Below are positions 4,172 through 45,450 of a stretch of DNA of 64,000 bases, piece after piece (position 1 is the stretch's first letter; every line of letters starts with the position of its first letter). Made by a program: the position numbers and the translations under genes. The notes beneath the pieces were generated by a model. It was not told the DNA's origin. It searched no databases and saw nothing but the letters and a program-made list of their open reading frames with translations. Source of the stretch: Pseudomonadota bacterium (GTDB lineage Bacteria; Bdellovibrionota_G; JALEGL01; DATDPG01); contig JAZDDX010000011.1 of the NCBI GenBank assembly GCA_043809315.1, positions 50,498-114,497 on the forward strand. Direction: 5' to 3'.

Positions 4172-4917
4172 GCCGGCCGGCGATGGAGATTTCGATCTGG
4201 GGATCTCACACGGTCGCGGAAGCGCTCGGGTCGCGACTCGCCCGCGTGCACGAGATCTACGTGACCTCCCGTGACGGGGCGACCGCGGAGATCGCCGCCC
4301 TCGGCCGGGAAAAAGGGATCCGGGTGACGGAGATCTCCCGGGAGAAGCTCGCTTCAAGGTTCGCAACCGAAAAACATCAGAATGTCGCAGCGCGGGTCAG
4401 CCTCGATCTGTATGAGTCGGTCGAGGAATGGTGGGAGGAAAGGAACCCTCCGGAGCCGGTGACCCTTTTGTTATCGGACGGAATCCAAGATCCCCAGAAC
4501 CTTGGCTCTCTCCTTCGTTCGGCTCACTTTTTCGGCGCCGATTTGTTTGTGATCACGAAAGACCGGGCGGCCCCTTTGAGCGGGGTTGTTGCAAAAGCCT
4601 CCTCGGGGGCTTTGTTTTCCCTCCCCTTGGCCCGGGTAACGAATCTCGCACGAGAGCTCGAAAATCTGGAAGACCGAGGAGTTTTTCGGGTGGCGCTGGA
4701 CGCGGAAGGGGATCAGACCCTCCGGGGGCTCGACCTGGGAGAACGGAGCGTGGCGCTGGTCGTCGGCGGGGAAGGGGAAGGAATCCGACAGCTTACGTTC
4801 AAACGATGCGACGCGCGCGCGAGATTGACCCTGACGGGGGAAAGGGACTCGCTAAATGCAGCCGTGGCGGGGGCTGTTGCCCTCTACGAACTGAGGGCCG
4901 GACGGAAGAAAAGCTGA
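4168..4917 (+). CDS. rlmB: TrmH/SpoU family RNA 2'-O-methyltransferase (RlmB-like)
   Basis: IQDPQNLGSLLRSA, VGGEGEG, DSLNAAVA SPOUT motifs. Confidence 0.85.
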   Translation: MSRPAMEISIWGSHTVAEALGSRLARVHEIYVTSRDGATAEIAALGREKGIRVTEISREKLASRFATEKHQNVAARVSLDLYESVEEWWEERNPPEPVTLLLSDGIQDPQNLGSLLRSAHFFGADLFVITKDRAAPLSGVVAKASSGALFSLPLARVTNLARELENLEDRGVFRVALDAEGDQTLRGLDLGERSVALVVGGEGEGIRQLTFKRCDARARLTLTGERDSLNAAVAGAVALYELRAGRKKS

Positions 4918-4939
4918 ATCAATTCCCCTCGTTATTTTC

Positions 4940-4975
4940 TTGACACCCGGGCCCGCCTTACATACAAAGCGCCGC
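4940..4975 (+). promoter_or_regulatory. Putative sigma70 promoter of the tRNA-tuf operon
   Basis: TTGACA (4940-4945), 17 bp spacer, TACAAA (4963-4968), then GC-rich discriminator GCGCCGC. Confidence 0.6.
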
Positions 4976-5050
4976 TTCCAAATCGACGGGCTCTCGCACC
5001 CGAAACAATGAGGGACTGCGAGGGTTCCGTGTTTTTGGGAGGCAGGCCGC

Positions 5051-5126
5051 GCTGGCGTAGCTCAATTGGTAGAGCAGCTGATTTGTAATCAGCAGGTTGC
5101 GGGTTCGAGTCCCATCGCCAGCTCCA
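5051..5126 (+). tRNA. tRNA-Thr(TGT)
   Basis: Cloverleaf with GCTGGCG/CGCCAGC acceptor stem, anticodon loop TT-TGT-AA, GTTCGA, encoded CCA. Confidence 0.97.
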
Positions 5127-5157
5127 TCAGCAGTTTGCTGAAGGGGCGGGGCACGGA

Positions 5158-5244
5158 GGAGAGGTACCCGAGAGGTCAAAGGGAGCAGACTGTAAATCTG
5201 CCGGCTTTATGCCTTCGAAGGTTCGAATCCTTCCCTCTCCACCA
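5158..5244 (+). tRNA. tRNA-Tyr(GTA)
   Basis: GGAGAGG/CCTCTCC stem, CT-GTA-AA loop, long variable arm, CCA. Confidence 0.97.
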
Positions 5245-5290
5245 GCAAAACGCGCGGGCGGATGCGGAAAGGTTTCGGAGGGCAGGAAGG

Positions 5291-5366
5291 GCGGGGATAG
5301 CTCAATTGGTAGAGCATCAGCCTTCCAAGCTGAGGGTCGCGGGTTCAAACCCCGTTCCCCGCTCCA
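5291..5366 (+). tRNA. tRNA-Gly(TCC)
   Basis: GCGGGGA/TCCCCGC stem, CT-TCC-AA loop, CCA. Confidence 0.97.
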
Positions 5367-5402
5367 AATTTGAGGTTTTAGAAGTAAGGGCGAAAGAAAA
5401 TC

Positions 5403-5478
<76 letters not shown>

Positions 5479-5512
5479 GGGAACCAGAAACGCAGGCAAG
5501 GAGAAAGGGATC

Positions 5513-6715
<1,203 letters not shown>

Positions 6716-6718
6716 TCG

Positions 6719-6868
6719 ATGTACAGCATCATTCACCTCGAGTGCACGGCGTGCAAGCGTCGGAATTATTCGACGACGAAGAACAAGCGCACGAAGACCG
6801 AGAAGCTCCACTTGAAGAAGTACTGCCGGTTTTGCCGGAAACACGTGGATCACAAGGAGACGAAGTAG
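6719..6868 (+). CDS. rpmG: 50S ribosomal protein L33 (Zn-binding form)
   Basis: Hand translation [24 protein letters not shown]...[17 protein letters not shown]. Confidence 0.95.
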
Positions 6869-39035: not shown

Positions 39036-39542
39036 ATGCCCGTTCTCCCCCTCCCAGGAAAGAAGCCGCGAATCGATCCGACCGCCCTGGTCCTCGAGCC
39101 GTCGGTGGTGGTGGGGGATGTCGAGATCGGAGCTCAGTCCAGTGTCTGGTTCGGGAGTGTGATTCGCGGCGATGTCCACTCGATCCGGATCGGGAAGCGG
39201 ACGAACATCCAGGATCTCTCCATGGTCCATGTGACATCGGGAACCGGTCCGTGCACGATCGGGGACGATGTGACCGTGGGGCACAACGCCGTGATTCATG
39301 CCTGTACGATCGGAGACCGGATTCTCATCGGAATGGGGGCGATCATCCTCGACAACGCCGTGATCGGCAGTGACTCCCTGATCGGCGCCGGCTCGCTCGT
39401 TCCGTCCCGGATGGAAATCCCGTCCGGGGTTTTGGTGATGGGATCGCCCGCGCGGATCAAACGAGAACTGACGGAAGCGGAGAAAGCGAGCCTGCTCGAG
39501 TCGGCTCAACATTACGTCGCCTATCAGGAGATGTACCGCTGA
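39036..39542 (+). CDS. Gamma carbonic anhydrase family (YrdA-like) hexapeptide-repeat protein
   Basis: IRGDVHSIRIG..TNIQD...H, VGHNAVIHAC. Confidence 0.93.
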   Translation: MPVLPLPGKKPRIDPTALVLEPSVVVGDVEIGAQSSVWFGSVIRGDVHSIRIGKRTNIQDLSMVHVTSGTGPCTIGDDVTVGHNAVIHACTIGDRILIGMGAIILDNAVIGSDSLIGAGSLVPSRMEIPSGVLVMGSPARIKRELTEAEKASLLESAQHYVAYQEMYR

Positions 39543-40000
39543 TGGCGAAGATCCGAACGCTACGTCAGTGCTCTCTCTGTCACGCGATGAGCTTCCGGGA
39601 CCTTGCGATCCTGGCGCCGTTTGTCCGGGAGGAATCGATCAAAGCCCGGGAGTGGCTGGCTCGGGAAGGGAAGCCGACCAATGGCCTGATCGTTCTAAAG
39701 ACCGGCCGGGTCAGAATCGGGCTCACCGAGCGGGCCGGATCGGAACTGGAAATCGGACCGGGGGAGTATCTTGGAGAACTCTCCCTGGTCCGGGCGGATG
39801 CCCCACGGGGAGTGGGGGCCCTTGCCCTGGAAGACTGCGAATACCTCCGTCTTGGGACTGCGGATTTCCGGGAGCTGATGACCCAGGCGCCTTCGGTGGC
39901 GGGGCGCCTAGCGCAGGGGGTGCTCGAGGCGCTGACGGAGAAGATGGGGCTTGCACGCGACCTCATCGCGAAGTCCCACTTGGAAAAATCGCCGGACTGA
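39542..40000 (+). CDS. Stand-alone cyclic nucleotide-binding domain protein
   Basis: GPGEYLGELSL...PR phosphate-binding cassette; no HTH domain. Confidence 0.85.
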   Translation: MAKIRTLRQCSLCHAMSFRDLAILAPFVREESIKAREWLAREGKPTNGLIVLKTGRVRIGLTERAGSELEIGPGEYLGELSLVRADAPRGVGALALEDCEYLRLGTADFRELMTQAPSVAGRLAQGVLEALTEKMGLARDLIAKSHLEKSPD

Positions 40001-40015
40001 GCTAGAACCCGACGC

Positions 40016-41083
40016 ATGCCGAAAAAGATTGTTCACGTCGTGGGGACCGGAACGATTGGTGAGCCGTTGATCGGTCTCTTGGCCGATCTCCGCGAACCGC
40101 TCGGGATCGACGAGGTCACGTTCTCGAAAAAACAGGCGCTTTTGACCGATCGCTCCAAGGTCGCGAGCCTCATCCGTCGCGGGGCCAAACTCTGCGCAGA
40201 CGAAGGGTCGATGAAGGAATTTCAGAAGATCGGTCTCGAACCGACCTTTAAGTTCGAAGAAGCTCTGGACCGCGCGTCCGTGATTCTGGACTGCACTCCC
40301 GTCGGGAACGACAACAAGCTGAAGCACTACGAGAAGCGGATCGGCTCCACGCTCGGCTTTATCGCCCAGGGGAGCGAGTTCGGTTTCGGGAAGATGTACG
40401 CACGAGGGATCAACGACGAGGCGCTGAGCCCAGGAAAGGACAGGTTCGTCCAGGTTGTCAGCTGCAATACCCATAACCTTTCGGTTCTGGTGAAGACGAT
40501 CGCGATGGCGAACGGAAAGGAACCGGACGGCCTCGAATCGGCCCGCTTCGTCTGCATCCGCCGCGCAAGCGACATCAGCCAGGACGCCGACTTCGTGCCG
40601 GCCCATCAGGCGAATCGCCACAGAGAAGGGAGGTTCGGGACCCACCACGCGCGGGATGCTCACCAGCTGTTCAAGACGGTCAACCTCGATCTGAATCTGT
40701 TCTCTTCCGCGCTCAAGACGAACACCCAGTACATGCACACGATCTGGTTCAATCTACGCCTCAAGAACCGGATCTCGAAAGAGGAGGTTGTGGAGCGTTT
40801 ACGGGCGAACGACCGGGTAGCTTTGACGCACAAAAACTCGGCCAACGCAGTCTTTTCGTTCGGGCGGGATCACGGACATTTCGGCCGGATCTTGAATCAA
40901 ACCGTCGTGGTTGAGGGTACGATCGACGTGGTGGGAGAACGGGAGGTCGTGGGGTGGTGTTTCACCCCCCAGGATGGGAATTCCCTCCTCTCCTCGGTCT
41001 CGGCGACCGAGTTTTTCCTCAATCCGACAGATTACGAGAAGCGAATCCAGTGCCTAAAAACCTTTTTCTTTTCAGAGGTTTAG
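40016..41083 (+). CDS. Type II (archaeal-like) glyceraldehyde-3-phosphate dehydrogenase-like protein
   Basis: Rossmann VVGTGTIG, DCTP, QG.E, catalytic VVSCNT, RRASD, THHA.D. Confidence 0.7.
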   Translation: MPKKIVHVVGTGTIGEPLIGLLADLREPLGIDEVTFSKKQALLTDRSKVASLIRRGAKLCADEGSMKEFQKIGLEPTFKFEEALDRASVILDCTPVGNDNKLKHYEKRIGSTLGFIAQGSEFGFGKMYARGINDEALSPGKDRFVQVVSCNTHNLSVLVKTIAMANGKEPDGLESARFVCIRRASDISQDADFVPAHQANRHREGRFGTHHARDAHQLFKTVNLDLNLFSSALKTNTQYMHTIWFNLRLKNRISKEEVVERLRANDRVALTHKNSANAVFSFGRDHGHFGRILNQTVVVEGTIDVVGEREVVGWCFTPQDGNSLLSSVSATEFFLNPTDYEKRIQCLKTFFFSEV

Positions 41084-41404: not shown

Positions 41405-41596
41405 ATGTATTCCACCCCATTGCAGACGGTAAAAACCAAGTTTGGTTCGAAGGAGAAGCTTGTCGAGAAGCTCTCGGGCAAGCTCAAGAAGCGAGAAGGG
41501 GAATCGGATTCCGCCTTGAAGAAAAGGCTCTTAAAGGTGAGTTCGAACAAATTACTTCACCTTCACGTTCGCATCGATCCGGAAAAGACGAAGTGA
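41405..41596 (+). CDS. Small basic hypothetical protein
   Basis: 63 aa Lys-rich ORF; its stop overlaps the pyrE start (GTGA). Confidence 0.65.
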   Translation: MYSTPLQTVKTKFGSKEKLVEKLSGKLKKREGESDSALKKRLLKVSSNKLLHLHVRIDPEKTK

Positions 41597-42222
41597 CCCA
41601 GGGGTCAGCTCGACGGATTGCCCGAATTCTTCTGAACCGGGGGGCGGTAGAACTTCGCCCGTCGCAGCCGTTTCGGTTTGCTTCCGGGATCTTGTCCCCC
41701 ATCTACTGCGATAACCGTCTTCTTCTCTCCGATGTCGAAGGGCGAGGGGAGATCGTTCGGGGGCTTACGGAACTCTTCCAGGCGGAGGGGGTGCAGCAGG
41801 TGGCCGGAGTCGCCACCGCCGGGATCGCATGGGGTGGGTGGGTCGCCGATCGGTTGAACCTACCGTTTCTCTACGTCCGAAATGCCCCAAAGGATCACGG
41901 AAAGAAGAATCTGATCGAGGGAAAGGTCGATCCGACCCTTCGGACCGGAATTGTTGAGGACCTTGTCAGTACGGGCGGGTCGGTCCTGACCGCGGCAAGG
42001 GAGTTGAAGAAGTTGAAGGTTCCCCTCGTCGGGGCATTCGCGATCTTTTCGTACGGATTCGACGAGGCGACGAAGGGATTTTCTGATCTTGGAGTTTCGA
42101 TCCACGCACTGGTCGGGTTGGATGATCTTCTTGCCGAGGCAGAGGAACAGGGAAGAATCACCACGGCTCAAGCTCGGAAAGTGTGCGAGTGGCGCGCCAA
42201 TCCCCGGACTATTTCCTGCTGA
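41593..42222 (+). CDS. pyrE: Orotate phosphoribosyltransferase
   Basis: FASGILSPIYCDNR, VEDLVSTGGS PRPP motif. Confidence 0.96.
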   Translation: MTQGSARRIARILLNRGAVELRPSQPFRFASGILSPIYCDNRLLLSDVEGRGEIVRGLTELFQAEGVQQVAGVATAGIAWGGWVADRLNLPFLYVRNAPKDHGKKNLIEGKVDPTLRTGIVEDLVSTGGSVLTAARELKKLKVPLVGAFAIFSYGFDEATKGFSDLGVSIHALVGLDDLLAEAEEQGRITTAQARKVCEWRANPRTISC

Positions 42223-44404
42223 GCGCCGTCGCGCGCTCGGAAGTGATCCACCCGATTTCGGCGGCGGTCTGCGCCCCGACCTTCACTTGGGCCAACTCCT
42301 GGAACGGGCGGTACCGTTCGGACGACTCGGGAATCCCGCGGCTCATGATTTCGCCGAACCGTTGCGGAAAGAGCGGGTCGAGCTTCGGCTCGACAAAACC
42401 GTCCGGGTAGGGCGGTAATCCCCGCTCGTCGAATTTGTCCCGAGCGCCCAGGGCATGCGCGATCTCATGCGCCAGCCGGACGCGCGACTCCCCGGCCTCC
42501 CGGTACGACAGGGGGATGTAAACGATCCCCTGTCTCTGCGGTCGATTCTCCATCGACTCGAGGGGGTACTTCGGCGATTCCTCAAACGTCTTCGGATAGA
42601 GAAGGACGAACACGTGCGCGACGGTCGTTCCCGCCAGATTCCGGGCAAGACCGAGATGGGCAGCCAGTTCGTCGAATGGCAGGTTGCGGTTGAAAAGGGA
42701 TCCGCCCCAGTGGACCGGGGGCGCCCCCGGTTTGGGATGCCCGATCGAGATCGTGAACGGGGGATCGTTCCGGTCGGTGTAGCGACGGTATTCGGAAGCA
42801 AAGAGGCGCGACACAGGTTCCTGCCAGAGGTTCATGCGGGCCATGTCGTTCATCCACGAATCGAGCGCTTGAGGATCGGCGTTGGTTCCGGCCCCCTCGA
42901 TCGCCACATCGATCTCGACGGTCCGAACGGGCAAGAGGAGCTTGGCGCCGGAGGAATCCATCCAGGACCGTCCGAAATGGAAGAGGGCGAACAGGAGAGC
43001 GACGGTTCCGATCCCGATCCCGATCTGTTTCAAGAGACGCCTCGAAATCCGGATGCTGTCGGTGATCTCGAAAAGAGGAGGAGGGGGGGGCGAAGGGGGG
43101 GAAGGCTCGATCGGTTTGAACGTCGGCGCACTGATCCCAATGTCGCTGACGGAGACCTCCTTCAGGATCATTCCAGGCGTACTGGACTTCTCGTGCGGCG
43201 GCACCGGGGGCTGTTCGGCCGGCACGGGGGCGGGATGAAACGTTCGTTTGACGAGTCTCTTGAGCAGTCCCACGCGGGCAACCTTGTCCCCGGAAGAGGG
43301 GCTCGGCGAAAGCGTCACACGGGTGACGGCGGCAGGATTCGACGGTTCGACCGGATCGGTGATCTCCGGCTTGATGGCCGAGCCGTCACCGAGAGGAACG
43401 CCCGCCAAGAGTTCGTCCGGGGCGATCGGTTCGCATCGCATCCGTTCCAACCCGTACGCACGCCGCCGTCGTTCCTTTTCGCGCTCCTCGGGGAACGTCC
43501 CCTCCATGAGCGCGCGGAGGTCTGTCCGCGCCGACCCGGAAGCCGACGGGAGCCGTTTCAGAAGATCGTCCGCGGAAGAAGGGCGCGTGTGGGGATCTTT
43601 CGAAAGGAGAACTCGGAGGATCTCTCTCAGCAGTGTGTGATCGGCCAGACGGGGGTGATCGAGATCTGGGTTCGAGGAATGGATCAGTTCCTGAAGGGCG
43701 ACCGAACTGGCGCCTTCGAAGGGGCGCTTGCCGGTCACCATCTCAAACAGAACCACTCCGAGGGCGTAAAGATCGGTCCGGCGCTCTGCAGCTCCCGAAA
43801 GCTGTTCCGGAGCCATGTATGCGAGCTTGCCGGGAGGGCGATCCCCGCCCGATCGCTCCGCGCGCTCGGCGGTCGCGATCCCGAAGTCGGCAAGCTTCAC
43901 GTCCCCGTCGTACGAAAGAAGGATGTTCTGCGGCGTGACGTCACAATGTACGAGGGCGAGAGATCGCCCGACGCTGTCGCAGGCGGTGTGAACCGATTGC
44001 AGAGCACTGGCGATCTCCCGGGTGATCGCGATGGCGAGCGGCAGGGGAAGGAACTCCCCGCGATCCGACAAACGCTTGAGCAGTTCGTCAAGTCTCTTTC
44101 CGTCGACCCACTCCATTTTGAGGAAAAAGTCGGTGCCGGAAGTCCCCAGGTCGAACACCTCAACCAGATTCGGGTGTCGCAGGAGAACGGCGATCTTCGC
44201 TTCCGCAACCAGTCTTTGTACGAAGGTCCGGCTCGTCGAATAGCGAGGAAAGAGTTTTTTGAGACAGCAGTAGCGGATCTCCGTCTCCGACACGCCGGGG
44301 GGAAACGGAGCCGCCAGGAGAACCTCGGCCATCCCCCCCTGACCCAAGTAATCGAGAAGGAAATACTCGCCGAAGCGGTGCGGCTGGAAGAGATCCCGGC
44401 TCAC
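42209..44404 (-). CDS. Hanks-type Ser/Thr kinase with TM helix and C-terminal zincin-like domain
   Basis: LGQGGMAEV, HCDVTPQN, DFG, YMAPE, DLYALG; Pro-rich linker; TM IGIGIGTVALLFALF; HEIAHALGARD. Confidence 0.88.
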   Translation of the reverse strand: MSRDLFQPHRFGEYFLLDYLGQGGMAEVLLAAPFPPGVSETEIRYCCLKKLFPRYSTSRTFVQRLVAEAKIAVLLRHPNLVEVFDLGTSGTDFFLKMEWVDGKRLDELLKRLSDRGEFLPLPLAIAITREIASALQSVHTACDSVGRSLALVHCDVTPQNILLSYDGDVKLADFGIATAERAERSGGDRPPGKLAYMAPEQLSGAAERRTDLYALGVVLFEMVTGKRPFEGASSVALQELIHSSNPDLDHPRLADHTLLREILRVLLSKDPHTRPSSADDLLKRLPSASGSARTDLRALMEGTFPEEREKERRRRAYGLERMRCEPIAPDELLAGVPLGDGSAIKPEITDPVEPSNPAAVTRVTLSPSPSSGDKVARVGLLKRLVKRTFHPAPVPAEQPPVPPHEKSSTPGMILKEVSVSDIGISAPTFKPIEPSPPSPPPPPLFEITDSIRISRRLLKQIGIGIGTVALLFALFHFGRSWMDSSGAKLLLPVRTVEIDVAIEGAGTNADPQALDSWMNDMARMNLWQEPVSRLFASEYRRYTDRNDPPFTISIGHPKPGAPPVHWGGSLFNRNLPFDELAAHLGLARNLAGTTVAHVFVLLYPKTFEESPKYPLESMENRPQRQGIVYIPLSYREAGESRVRLAHEIAHALGARDKFDERGLPPYPDGFVEPKLDPLFPQRFGEIMSRGIPESSERYRPFQELAQVKVGAQTAAEIGWITSERATALSRK

Positions 44405-45450
44405 GGTTCAACAGCGAAGAAAGGGGCGGGGTCCGTGCGCGGGAGGAGTTCCGGACGGTCGGCGGTCCCGAGAATGTCGATGGCGAACGCTCGTTCTCTC
44501 GTCGTGAGGTCGAGCTCGAGAGGGAAGTCCGAAATCGGAATCCGCCCCCGCAGAAGGTTCCGGTATTCGAGCAAAGCCTTTGCCAGACGCTTGTACGGGC
44601 TCAAGGGTGCGGTTTTCGGAAGGTGTTTTTCACGATACCAGGCGGCGTCGAACGGGAGAAGAAAACGAATCGTCCCTTGTCGGCAATTCTCATCGCAAGT
44701 GATCCGGAGCTCCCCGGGTTTATTGTAGAACGTCTGGAGTTCTCGGACGATTGCCGAATCGGATACGCGATCGCTCACAAAATTCCGATACGAAGCGGAG
44801 ACGTTCTCCGTGCGGATCTGGAGGGGAACGCCGGAGGCCCCGCTGTCCGCGGTAGATCGGCTCGTGCAACCCTCGGAGAGATCGTTCGCCTCCTTGCGCG
44901 CCTCGGACGGGTTGAGTTCGTGCCGACTTAAGAACGAGGCGACATCGGAACAGTTCCCTTTTTCCGCGAGCCGCCGTACAAAAGCGAGTTCGCTGAGCGG
45001 GGGGATGGCGTTCAGCTTCGGCGCTACGGTTACATACCAATCCGAGATCCCCGAAACGATGCTGCTCGTCGTGTCGCGCGGGACCGCCGTTTCGGCAATG
45101 AGTTCTCCCGTCTCGATCGACCGGATCGTCGCGAGAACGAACGATCCCGGTTCGCCGGTCGGGTGTGCAAGCGTGAGGAGGGCCGCGGCTCCGCGATCCG
45201 CCGCACTGACTTCGACTTTCGAGATCCCGGTGGCTCCGGTCCGCTCCACCGGCAAGATTTTGTGACCGGAGGAAGCGGCGAGGCGAGCTGCAAGATCATC
45301 GGCCGTCACGGCAAGGGTCCCGGGGGCGACCGATAGGGCCACGCGAACGGGACCTCCCGATCGTCCTGATGAAGGGGAGGAACTCGGGGAATGGGTGGAA
45401 CAGGCCAAGAGGCCGATGGCGGCGGCGGCCCACGCTCGTTGGAAGTACAT
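44401..45450 (-). CDS. Putative lipoprotein
   Basis: GGAGG RBS then MYFQRAWAAAAIGLLAC lipobox and Ser-rich tether; stop overlaps the kinase start. Confidence 0.7.
   Translation of the reverse strand: MYFQRAWAAAAIGLLACSTHSPSSSPSSGRSGGPVRVALSVAPGTLAVTADDLAARLAASSGHKILPVERTGATGISKVEVSAADRGAAALLTLAHPTGEPGSFVLATIRSIETGELIAETAVPRDTTSSIVSGISDWYVTVAPKLNAIPPLSELAFVRRLAEKGNCSDVASFLSRHELNPSEARKEANDLSEGCTSRSTADSGASGVPLQIRTENVSASYRNFVSDRVSDSAIVRELQTFYNKPGELRITCDENCRQGTIRFLLPFDAAWYREKHLPKTAPLSPYKRLAKALLEYRNLLRGRIPISDFPLELDLTTRERAFAIDILGTADRPELLPRTDPAPFFAVEP

Follow-up and report, generated by a model that had tools for sequence, protein, structure and literature searches.

A receptor Ser/Thr kinase gene with a predicted metzincin-fold ectodomain, overlapping a putative lipoprotein gene, in a metagenome-assembled genome of Bdellovibrionota_G

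The window analysed here is a stretch of 64,000 nucleotides from a metagenome-assembled genome (2.42 Mb, 96 % complete, 44 contigs) of a Pseudomonadota bacterium of the GTDB lineage Bdellovibrionota_G; JALEGL01; DATDPG01 (assembly GCA_043809315.1, contig JAZDDX010000011.1, positions 50,498 to 114,497). It carries a gene for a putative lipoprotein (gene 1) and, overlapping its 3' end, a gene for a receptor Ser/Thr kinase with a metzincin-like ectodomain (gene 2). A first-pass annotation, made from the sequence alone, had described the pair as a two-gene unit coupled by a GTGA stop/start overlap. Its gene coordinates were correct, the overlap is present at 44404-44401, and both genes lie on the minus strand, which it had not given. 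The two genes and the parts of the gene 2 product are listed below.

44401..45450 (-): gene 1, putative lipoprotein of 349 amino acids (open reading frame (ORF) P0007; P0002 is the same frame with an ATG 12 nt upstream)
44401..44404 (-): GTGA overlap of the gene 1 stop codon TGA and the gene 2 start codon GTG, read from the sequence
42209..44404 (-): gene 2, receptor Ser/Thr kinase with metzincin-like ectodomain, 731 amino acids (ORF P0001)
43562..44353 (-): Hanks-type kinase domain, residues 18-281 (Pfam PF00069, Pkinase, E 6.3e-34, 118 bits against a cut-off of 31.7)
43037..43561 (-): Pro-rich cytoplasmic linker, residues ~282-456 (15.6 % Pro over residues 301-480; no Pfam match)
42974..43036 (-): single transmembrane helix, residues 457-477; no other stretch has Kyte-Doolittle windows above 1.6 (segment LLKQIGIGIGTVALLFALFHF)
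42212..42973 (-): predicted extracytoplasmic metzincin-fold domain of an unnamed family, residues 478-731 (254 amino acids), from profile search, AlphaFold2 model and fold matches
42437..42469 (-): zinc-binding consensus HEIAHALGARD, residues 646-656 (H646, E647, H650, G653, D656), from translation and conservation
42344..42352 (-): EIM, residues 685-687, with Met687 as candidate Met-turn, from translation; the Met is invariant in alignments A3 (64 rows) and A4 (76 rows)

Gene 1 starts with the ATG at 45450, preceded by a Shine-Dalgarno sequence (GGAGG, 45460-45456), and its TGA stop ends at 44401. The GTG start of gene 2 is supported by a Gly-rich loop upstream of Met25 that is conserved in orthologues. 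The database gene calls P0004 and P0005 begin at the Met25 position and therefore do not include this loop.

The N-terminal part of the gene 2 product belongs to the class of Hanks-type Ser/Thr kinases. The profile cut-off was passed and all catalytic motifs were in place, including the Gly-rich loop (GQGGMA, residues 21-26), the β3 Lys (CLKK, 47-50), the Asp and Asn of the catalytic loop (HCDVTPQN, 153-160), DFG (173) and APE (198). The catalytic loop is non-RD, with Cys for the Arg of HRD, and has Thr at the usual position of the loop Lys. Eight Hanks-kinase matches were found in the genome of the window, i.e. gene 2 and seven further frames, one match (L008) containing a TGA. The six other kinases in which the loop was read (L002-L007) have HRD[VI]SPxN together with a Gly loop GGMAE[VI], and the seven loops, that of gene 2 included, conform to H[RC]D[VI][ST]PxN, with Ser or Thr replacing the loop Lys. 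Since the six other kinases have Ser at this site, the Ser/Thr is regarded as a trait of the lineage and not as the sign of a dead enzyme. The residue after the catalytic-loop His varies among the kinase-fused relatives described below, being C, R, K or Q. Basic residues (RISRR..K) flank the transmembrane helix on the kinase side, consistent with the N-terminus inside and the C-terminus outside. By every sequence criterion tested, the gene 2 product is a receptor Hanks kinase with predicted phosphotransfer activity, and its predicted topology has a cytoplasmic kinase and an extracytoplasmic metzincin-like domain. The features that the first-pass annotation had listed for gene 2, i.e. the GxGxxA loop (GQGGMA), the non-RD HCD, DFG, APE, the Pro-rich linker, one transmembrane helix, HEIAHALGARD and EIM, were all present.

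The succession of an N-terminal cytoplasmic Hanks kinase, a linker, one transmembrane helix and a C-terminal extracytoplasmic sensor is shared with the PASTA receptor kinases (PknB, PrkC, Stk1), and residues 14-299 matched the model NF033483 (PknB_PASTA_kin) with E 2.4e-54 and 185 bits, far below the model cut-off of 450 bits. Unlike the PASTA kinases, the gene 2 protein has no PASTA repeats, its putative sensor has an enzyme-like, metzincin fold according to the model, and its catalytic loop is non-RD (HCD) with Thr for Lys. Unlike in PASTA kinase systems, no gene for a PP2C phosphatase was noticed next to gene 2.

The ectodomain (residues 478-731) was matched by no Pfam or NCBIfam model at E ≤ 1, and no model of either collection covers it. 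A profile search with a four-sequence alignment of the domain (A2) gave 684 representative clusters (50 % identity) at E ≤ 1e-3, 499 of them at E ≤ 1e-10 and 58 at E ≤ 1e-30, so that the ectodomain defines a sizeable family of membrane-tethered metzincin-like proteins for which neither Pfam nor NCBIfam has a model. Three relatives were found in a word-index search, two of them kinase fusions and the third a protein of 443 amino acids with a Cys-rich N-terminus, a transmembrane helix and the same domain, and a search of contigs with A2 matched the P0006 locus only. The names of the clusters of 10 relatives are 'hypothetical protein' or 'serine/threonine-protein kinase' only. In the ESM Atlas, the 30 nearest clusters (scores up to 0.96) are likewise all named 'hypothetical protein' and have no Pfam family, and, of the clusters with a name, Reprolysin_5, CLCA and Metallopep come closest, with scores of at most 0.85.

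HEIAHALGARD agrees with the extended consensus HExxHxxGxx(H/D) of the metzincin clan MA(M). An alignment of 64 short relatives (A3) shows no variation at H148, G155 and M189 (domain numbering) and conservation of 90 % or more at E149, H152 and D158, the consensus of these sequences being AHELLHTLGAxDKYD...PxGxAEP...PLYPQxxAEIMA. Because the motif is conserved in these 64 sequences, the HExxH of the gene 2 protein is not a chance occurrence. The motif of the family can be written HExxHxxGAxDK[YF], in which the Asp is the third ligand; some 31 residues beyond it comes an invariant Met, which stays even in copies in which zinc ligands have been lost.

Comparisons with named peptidase families gave weak matches. 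The sole match of the family profile in the Protein Data Bank was snapalysin, over HExxHxxGxxDxY and below significance (E 0.056). The M6 domain model TIGR03296 was matched by 15 of the 64 relatives (best E 1.2e-4) and not by the domain of the window itself, and Reprolysin_4/5 were matched weakly by two of the 64. These links point weakly to the metzincins with an Asp ligand. Snapalysin (M7) and InhA/PrtV (M6) share with the ectodomain the HExxHxxGxxD, the aromatic residue at the second position after it and a Met further downstream, but the similarities are below significance or below curated cut-offs and the domain of the window matches neither model, and membership in M6 or M7 is not demonstrable from the sequence. 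Snapalysin is moreover a secreted enzyme of 130 residues, and the Asp and the Met are about 31 residues apart in the ectodomain, versus about 10 in snapalysins according to a section of PMC3890501 in which the motif classes are discussed. The adamalysin/reprolysin family M12B does not include the domain, as P0001 has no Reprolysin match at E ≤ 1 and its third ligand is Asp, not His. The same section of PMC3890501 describes the mini-zincins (M94, PF06262) as having no Met-turn and an HExxH near the C-terminus; the ectodomain has no Pfam match to this family and has an invariant Met and about 75 residues beyond the motif.

A metzincin-like C-terminal domain had been proposed in the first-pass annotation, and the region after the transmembrane helix was indeed modelled as a metzincin fold. 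The AlphaFold2 model of residues 499-731, built on the 64-row alignment, had a mean predicted local distance difference test score (pLDDT) of 87 and a predicted TM score (pTM) of 0.87, and consists of four strands, a long backing helix (22-45), the helix bearing the HExxH (136-153), a long loop and C-terminal helices. Every row shown by Foldseek was a metzincin, the best being ADAM10 (8esv_A, E 7.9e-3, TM score 0.45) and none having E ≤ 0.001. When the model was compared with 48,161 chains by VIA-align, the best match was ADAM17 (2i47_A, Z 8.9, root-mean-square deviation 4.0, 176 residues aligned), and the top matches (Z 8.9-8.0) were ADAM17, ADAM10 (Z 8.5), OgpA, ADAM8 (Z 8.3) and snake-venom metalloproteinases, with ADAM22 at Z 7.5, InhA2 at Z 6.4 and snapalysin at Z 4.3. 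Going by the titles, the 26 best rows (Z 8.9-5.1) are catalytic domains of zinc peptidases, one entry being called only 'chaperone-substrate complex', and include ADAM/ADAMTS enzymes and snake-venom metalloproteinases, OgpA-type glycopeptidases, archaemetzincin, ulilysin, InhA2, fragilysin, mirolysin and PAPP-A. As a Z near 8 is middling, the argument for a metzincin rests on the homogeneity of this list and on the motif, not on the score. On the conservation of the motif and the metzincin matches of the AlphaFold2 model, the ectodomain is a predicted metzincin-fold domain with Asp as third ligand, belonging to an unnamed family, and may bind zinc and hydrolyse peptide bonds.

The ADAM/adamalysin proteins (M12B), which gave the best structural matches, also have a membrane-anchored metzincin domain at the cell surface, and ADAM22 bound to LGI1 was among the Foldseek rows. 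The ADAM family includes members that have lost catalysis and act as receptors, ADAM22 being an example. The ectodomain differs from that of the ADAMs in having Asp and not His as third ligand and in lying C-terminal to the transmembrane helix, i.e. in the opposite membrane orientation. Unlike the ADAMs, the gene 2 protein has no pro-domain, disintegrin domain or Cys-rich part, and is fused to a kinase, not merely regulated by one.

Among the 17 species genomes of the phylum, the ectodomain was found in 12, the genome of the window included, which has one copy. The open frames are of 643-938 amino acids, save for two copies (200 and 236 amino acids) cut at contig ends. When P0001 was used as tblastn query, the kinase part was matched in nine of the 11 other genomes, the remaining two being contig-end fragments, and the frame of G001, cut at a contig end, gave a short kinase match only. 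The fusion is one open frame in eight other genomes (G002, G004, G005, G007, G009, G010, G011 and G016), of which G004 is a single-contig genome of 2.9 Mb. The neighbourhood is constant across the genomes with the fusion, nuoA-F lying on one side and a phosphoribosyltransferase gene (pyrE-like), a gdh-like gene and a conserved gene for a 355-amino-acid protein on the other.

A metagenome-assembled genome of 44 contigs, and an HExxH of the kind that alone is common by chance, could in principle have produced an artefact, either by chimeric assembly or by two genes being mis-called as one read-through frame. This explanation is refuted by the conservation of the fusion on sequence grounds and is given next to no credence here: the fusion occurs as one open frame in the eight other genomes and in further long representatives from other sources, the motif is conserved throughout the family, and the same neighbourhood throughout, together with the single-contig genome, excludes a chimeric assembly. 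The kinase-zincin fusion noticed in the first-pass annotation, which had itself named a chimeric assembly as a possible objection, is thus real and conserved at one syntenic locus. In one orthologue (G009, L024:4307-6738), the first ~80 kinase residues are in another frame than the rest (4307-4591 versus 4495-6738), which may be a frameshift or an assembly error.

The longer representatives of the family (76) included 20 with Pkinase, four with zf-B_box and two with a Ribosomal_L12 C-terminal-like domain. For comparison of the zinc motifs, 152 ectodomain rows (at least 170 profile positions, 147 different) were cut from stored proteins and from the phylum loci, with lipoprotein records, one duplicate and cluster members excluded. 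By N-terminal type, 28 rows are fused to a kinase, 46 have a Cys-rich zinc finger, 73 have a short anchor only and five are of other types. A FastTree phylogeny of these ectodomains has a branch (Shimodaira-Hasegawa-like support 93) that sets apart 35 rows, among them all 28 that are fused to a kinase; the other seven include contig-end fragments such as G003 and G001. This grouping agrees with one fusion event.

The zinc motif is degenerate in nine of the 28 kinase-fused rows, in none of the 46 with a zinc finger, in two of the 73 short rows and in two of the five others; examples of degenerate motifs are FEVVVTYGGSK, REIAVLYGASL and HQMLRLMNAPI. Six changes of motif state are needed in the tree, five inside the kinase group and one outside (E to A in P0106). 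Seven of the 12 phylum orthologues are intact (G000, G003, G004, G005, G008, G009 and G016), one (G002) reads HExxHxxGxxE, with Glu replacing the Asp ligand, and four (G001, G007, G010 and G011) have lost zinc ligands or the catalytic Glu. The degenerate copies retain the block PxG..P..P[LI][YH]PQ..[AG]E[IL]M with the invariant Met. The kinase catalytic loop is intact in G007, G010 and G011, and no catalytic-loop motif was seen in G001, in which the frame is cut. The much higher share of degenerate motifs in the kinase-fused rows (9/28 versus 0/46 and 2/73) indicates that binding, and not necessarily cleavage, is probably the conserved role of the ectodomain. The loss of zinc residues in several relatives suggests that the ectodomain serves as a sensor; a role in sensing or binding fits this pattern, with which proteolysis as the conserved job of the fusion is hard to square.

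The protein might also work in the opposite direction, as an inside-out system in which the output is an active periplasmic protease tethered to the membrane, either a sheddase or a processing enzyme, and the cytoplasmic kinase and linker set its activity, oligomeric state or placement. The catalytic residues are intact in the copy of the window and in seven of the 12 phylum orthologues, the wider family is nearly always intact (46/46 zinc-finger-anchored and 71/73 short rows) and always has its membrane anchor beside the catalytic domain, as expected of a protease working at the membrane surface, and the best fold matches, ADAM17 and ADAM10, are sheddases. Four of the 12 orthologues at the same locus and nine of the 28 fused rows, however, have lost zinc ligands or the catalytic Glu and have kept the rest of the domain, and a protease output therefore cannot be the conserved function of the fusion; inside-out control is judged quite improbable. 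The first-pass annotation had left open whether the peptidase is active or a substrate-trapping sensor. The sensor side of this is supported by the degenerate orthologues and fused rows, but the copy of the window itself has lost nothing and may therefore both bind and cut.

The features of the gene 1 product are as follows.

45400..45450 (-): signal peptide with lipobox LLAC (Cys17), read from the translation (N-terminus MYFQRAWAAAAIGLLAC)
45001..45360 (-): N-terminal α/β domain, residues ~31-150, with a TolB-N/PelC/CsgG/LpoB-like fold according to VIA, Foldseek and ESM Atlas
44404..45000 (-): helical middle and C-terminal α/β part, residues ~151-349, with four invariant Cys (alignment A5 and secondary structure of the model)

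The lipobox of bacterial lipoproteins follows the pattern [LVI][ASTVI][GAS]C. The gene 1 product has, as read by eye, a signal peptide ending in a lipobox, and the LLAC and several Cys pointed out in the first-pass annotation were found, with Cys17 as the lipobox Cys and four further Cys (C167, C195, C252 and C256) invariant in four aligned orthologues (A5). A Cys in a lipobox-like context is present in three of the four orthologues and not in that of G005. No Pfam or NCBIfam model matched the protein at E ≤ 1, so that by these collections it belongs to none of the TolB-N, LpoB, PelC and CsgG sequence families. Its AlphaFold2 model, built on a nine-row alignment, had a mean pLDDT of 77.9 and a pTM of 0.52. 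In VIA, the N-terminal domain matched the anticodon-binding domain of HisRS (Z 10.8), TolB (9.9), HpaA (9.6), PelC (8.4), CsgG (8.1) and LpoB (7.4), the fold lists being filled by this domain with the C-terminal half barely covered. The best Foldseek match had E 1.1e-3, none being ≤ 0.001, and the leads from the ESM Atlas were to CsgG/LpoB, all with scores below 0.9. As the TolB-N/HpaA/PelC/CsgG/LpoB fold is common among envelope lipoproteins, the resemblance is at the level of fold only.

Homologues of the lipoprotein, 24-25 % identical, lie directly upstream of the kinase gene in G002, G004 and G005, at 5-9 nt from it when counted from the first start codon of each frame. The linkage is thus present in all four assessable genomes of family f1, to which the window belongs (the genome of the window, G002, G004 and G005), G003 being truncated at a contig end. 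When the four sequences were used as a profile, nothing was found in the six genomes of family f3, which have the kinase. The profile gave weaker, partial matches in f4 (3/3 genomes, E 1e-7 to 5e-10), f5 and f6, of which those of f4 lie beside gdh at the same locus without a kinase fusion (G013 and G014) and those of f5 and f6 elsewhere in the genomes. Word-index searches with the lipoprotein, limited to 8000 candidates each, returned either itself only or itself and the G004 orthologue. This distribution among families f1 and f3-f6 shows the pairing with the kinase to be family-specific. The lipoprotein had been expected to be a conserved partner of the fusion, which it is not: upstream homologues occur only in f1, f3 has the kinase without the lipoprotein and f4 a distant lipoprotein homologue without the kinase. 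In terms of synteny, the fusion is conserved across the phylum, but its linkage to the lipoprotein is limited to the family of the window.

These data bear on the proposal that the two products form an obligate pair, a trans-envelope relay in which the lipoprotein is the direct partner of the ectodomain, be it its substrate, a co-receptor in the outer membrane, a tethered inhibitor or a pro-domain acting in trans. The GTGA overlap and the 5-9 nt spacing in three other genomes agree with it, as does the linkage in 4/4 assessable f1 genomes, all of which have the two zinc His and the catalytic Glu (in G002, Glu replaces the Asp ligand). A location outside the cytoplasm is predicted for both products, and the fold of the N-terminal domain of the lipoprotein is common in envelope lipoproteins that dock to partners (TolB-N, LpoB, PelC). 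The lipoprotein is, however, absent beside the kinase in f3, f5 and f6, and in f4, where the locus holds its distant homologue, there is no kinase fusion. The VIA and Foldseek matches of the lipoprotein model included no known protease-inhibitor fold, and gene adjacency alone is weak evidence for contact. A complex prediction of the ectodomain (A3) with residues 30-349 of the lipoprotein (A5) scored 0.00 in two runs, which were made without controls and weigh neither way. On balance, an obligate pair is considered unlikely.

In f4 genomes, a secreted protein of 350 amino acids, a distant homologue of the lipoprotein, is encoded between gdh and a purN-like gene (L032:4387-5439 (-); L033:5221-6279 (-)). 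Small ORFs with a signal peptide are seen upstream of the kinase gene in G009 and G010; they show no relationship to the lipoprotein or to one another, and may be spurious.

Given a probability of about 0.55, the preferred reading of the locus is a two-gene operon for a single-pass receptor kinase, with a metzincin-fold ectodomain of an unnamed family as sensor and the lipoprotein as lineage-specific accessory. The ectodomain would be the sensor of the kinase, its active-site cleft capturing a periplasmic or exported peptide or protein. The copy of the window, with all catalytic residues kept, would probably also cleave the captured ligand, and in degenerate orthologues occupancy of the cleft would act without cleavage. 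Occupancy would alter the output of the kinase across the membrane, most likely via oligomerisation as in other bacterial receptor kinases; for the PASTA kinases, ligand-induced dimerisation is given as the accepted activation model in a passage of PMC6213207. The lipoprotein would be an accessory in f1, not a universal component, and is a candidate ligand presenter or gate, co-receptor, substrate, inhibitor or ligand.

Several points weigh against the sensor reading. The copy of the window retains every catalytic residue and so may simply be an active protease, and the motif loss in its relatives makes no direct statement on the protein of the window. The motif counts come from rows that are kin, not independent, five identical pairs among them having been entered both as database protein and as genome locus, and the rows examined are the best 150 of the 684 representatives. 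As regards the fold, the AlphaFold2 model leaves out residues 478-498, Foldseek gave no ectodomain match at E ≤ 0.001, and the VIA match is moderate, its Z of 8.9 being close to the best Z of 7-8 typical of models without a clear Foldseek match. The convergence of His, His and Asp on a zinc site with Met687 beneath is predicted from the motif. The roles given to the lipoprotein are putative. The organism is represented by a metagenome-assembled genome only; a look-up of sequencing runs gave one DNA run with 0.09 of the sampled words and no RNA run.

A more specific form of the sensor reading, put forward tentatively and with the odds against it, is that the ectodomain is a peptide or protein receptor in which a protease cleft has been recruited as ligand site. 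Capture, with or without cleavage, would lead to phosphorylation, at least five moves from protease to pseudoprotease would have occurred in the tree, and in the family of the window the outer-membrane lipoprotein would present or gate the ligand. If true, Hanks kinases would have a new class of extracytoplasmic sensor, and the ADAM receptors that have lost catalysis would have a prokaryotic counterpart. The orthologues of this one locus, some with an intact and some with a degenerate zinc site, form a natural series for the transition from protease to receptor.

The layout of a receptor Hanks kinase is known; the sensor class for bacterial receptor kinases and the sizeable metzincin-like family appear to be new. 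No description of a kinase-metzincin architecture, or of a metalloprotease ectodomain on such a kinase, was found in the open full-text literature, work on myxobacterial kinomes included, the search being at the level of listings and abstracts with subscription journals and supplements lying outside it. The statement of the first-pass annotation that no characterised example was known to it therefore holds for the literature covered, and, as said above, the domain has no Pfam or NCBIfam model. In BlaR1/MecR1, signalling across the membrane likewise runs within one polypeptide, which joins an extracytoplasmic sensor to a zinc-protease domain; the protease of BlaR1 is cytoplasmic and of the gluzincin type, its sensor is a penicillin-binding domain, and it has no kinase. 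By comparison, the arrangement of protease and sensor is reversed in the gene 2 protein, which has a kinase. To our knowledge, ligands are known for few of the sensor domains found on bacterial Ser/Thr receptor kinases, chiefly for PASTA, and an enzyme-like sensor with a defined cleft would make candidate ligands directly testable.

The relatives with a zinc finger (46/152 rows) have a different cytoplasmic part, made up of a small α/β domain and a Cys-rich, B-box-like zinc finger, followed by a transmembrane helix and an always intact metzincin-like domain. Two of their loci, L037:3143-4474 (+) and L039:4995-6311 (+), adjoin pal- and cpoB-like genes, with ftsZ also adjacent in L037. In a metagenome scan with this subfamily (16 loci, greedy ORF calls), the short members did not share a neighbourhood, and the pal/cpoB-like genes recurred in L037 and L039 only.

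Upstream of gene 1, a promoter-like site at 45489-45461 (-) was not relied on, being a single consensus match against 0.5 expected and one that would overlap the Shine-Dalgarno sequence. On the other side of the locus, the kinase gene and a convergent pyrE-like gene (41593-42222) overlap by 14 nt at their 3' ends (42209-42222), with no terminator-like site between them. Further on, a protein of 355 amino acids with a Rossmann-like N-terminus (GTGTIGEP) is encoded at 40016-41083 (+); it has no Pfam match at E ≤ 0.001, and its gene is syntenic with the kinase locus across the phylum. A stand-alone cyclic-nucleotide-binding protein of 152 amino acids (PF00027, E 1e-15) is encoded at 39542-40000 (+), about 2.2 kb from the 3' end of the kinase gene.

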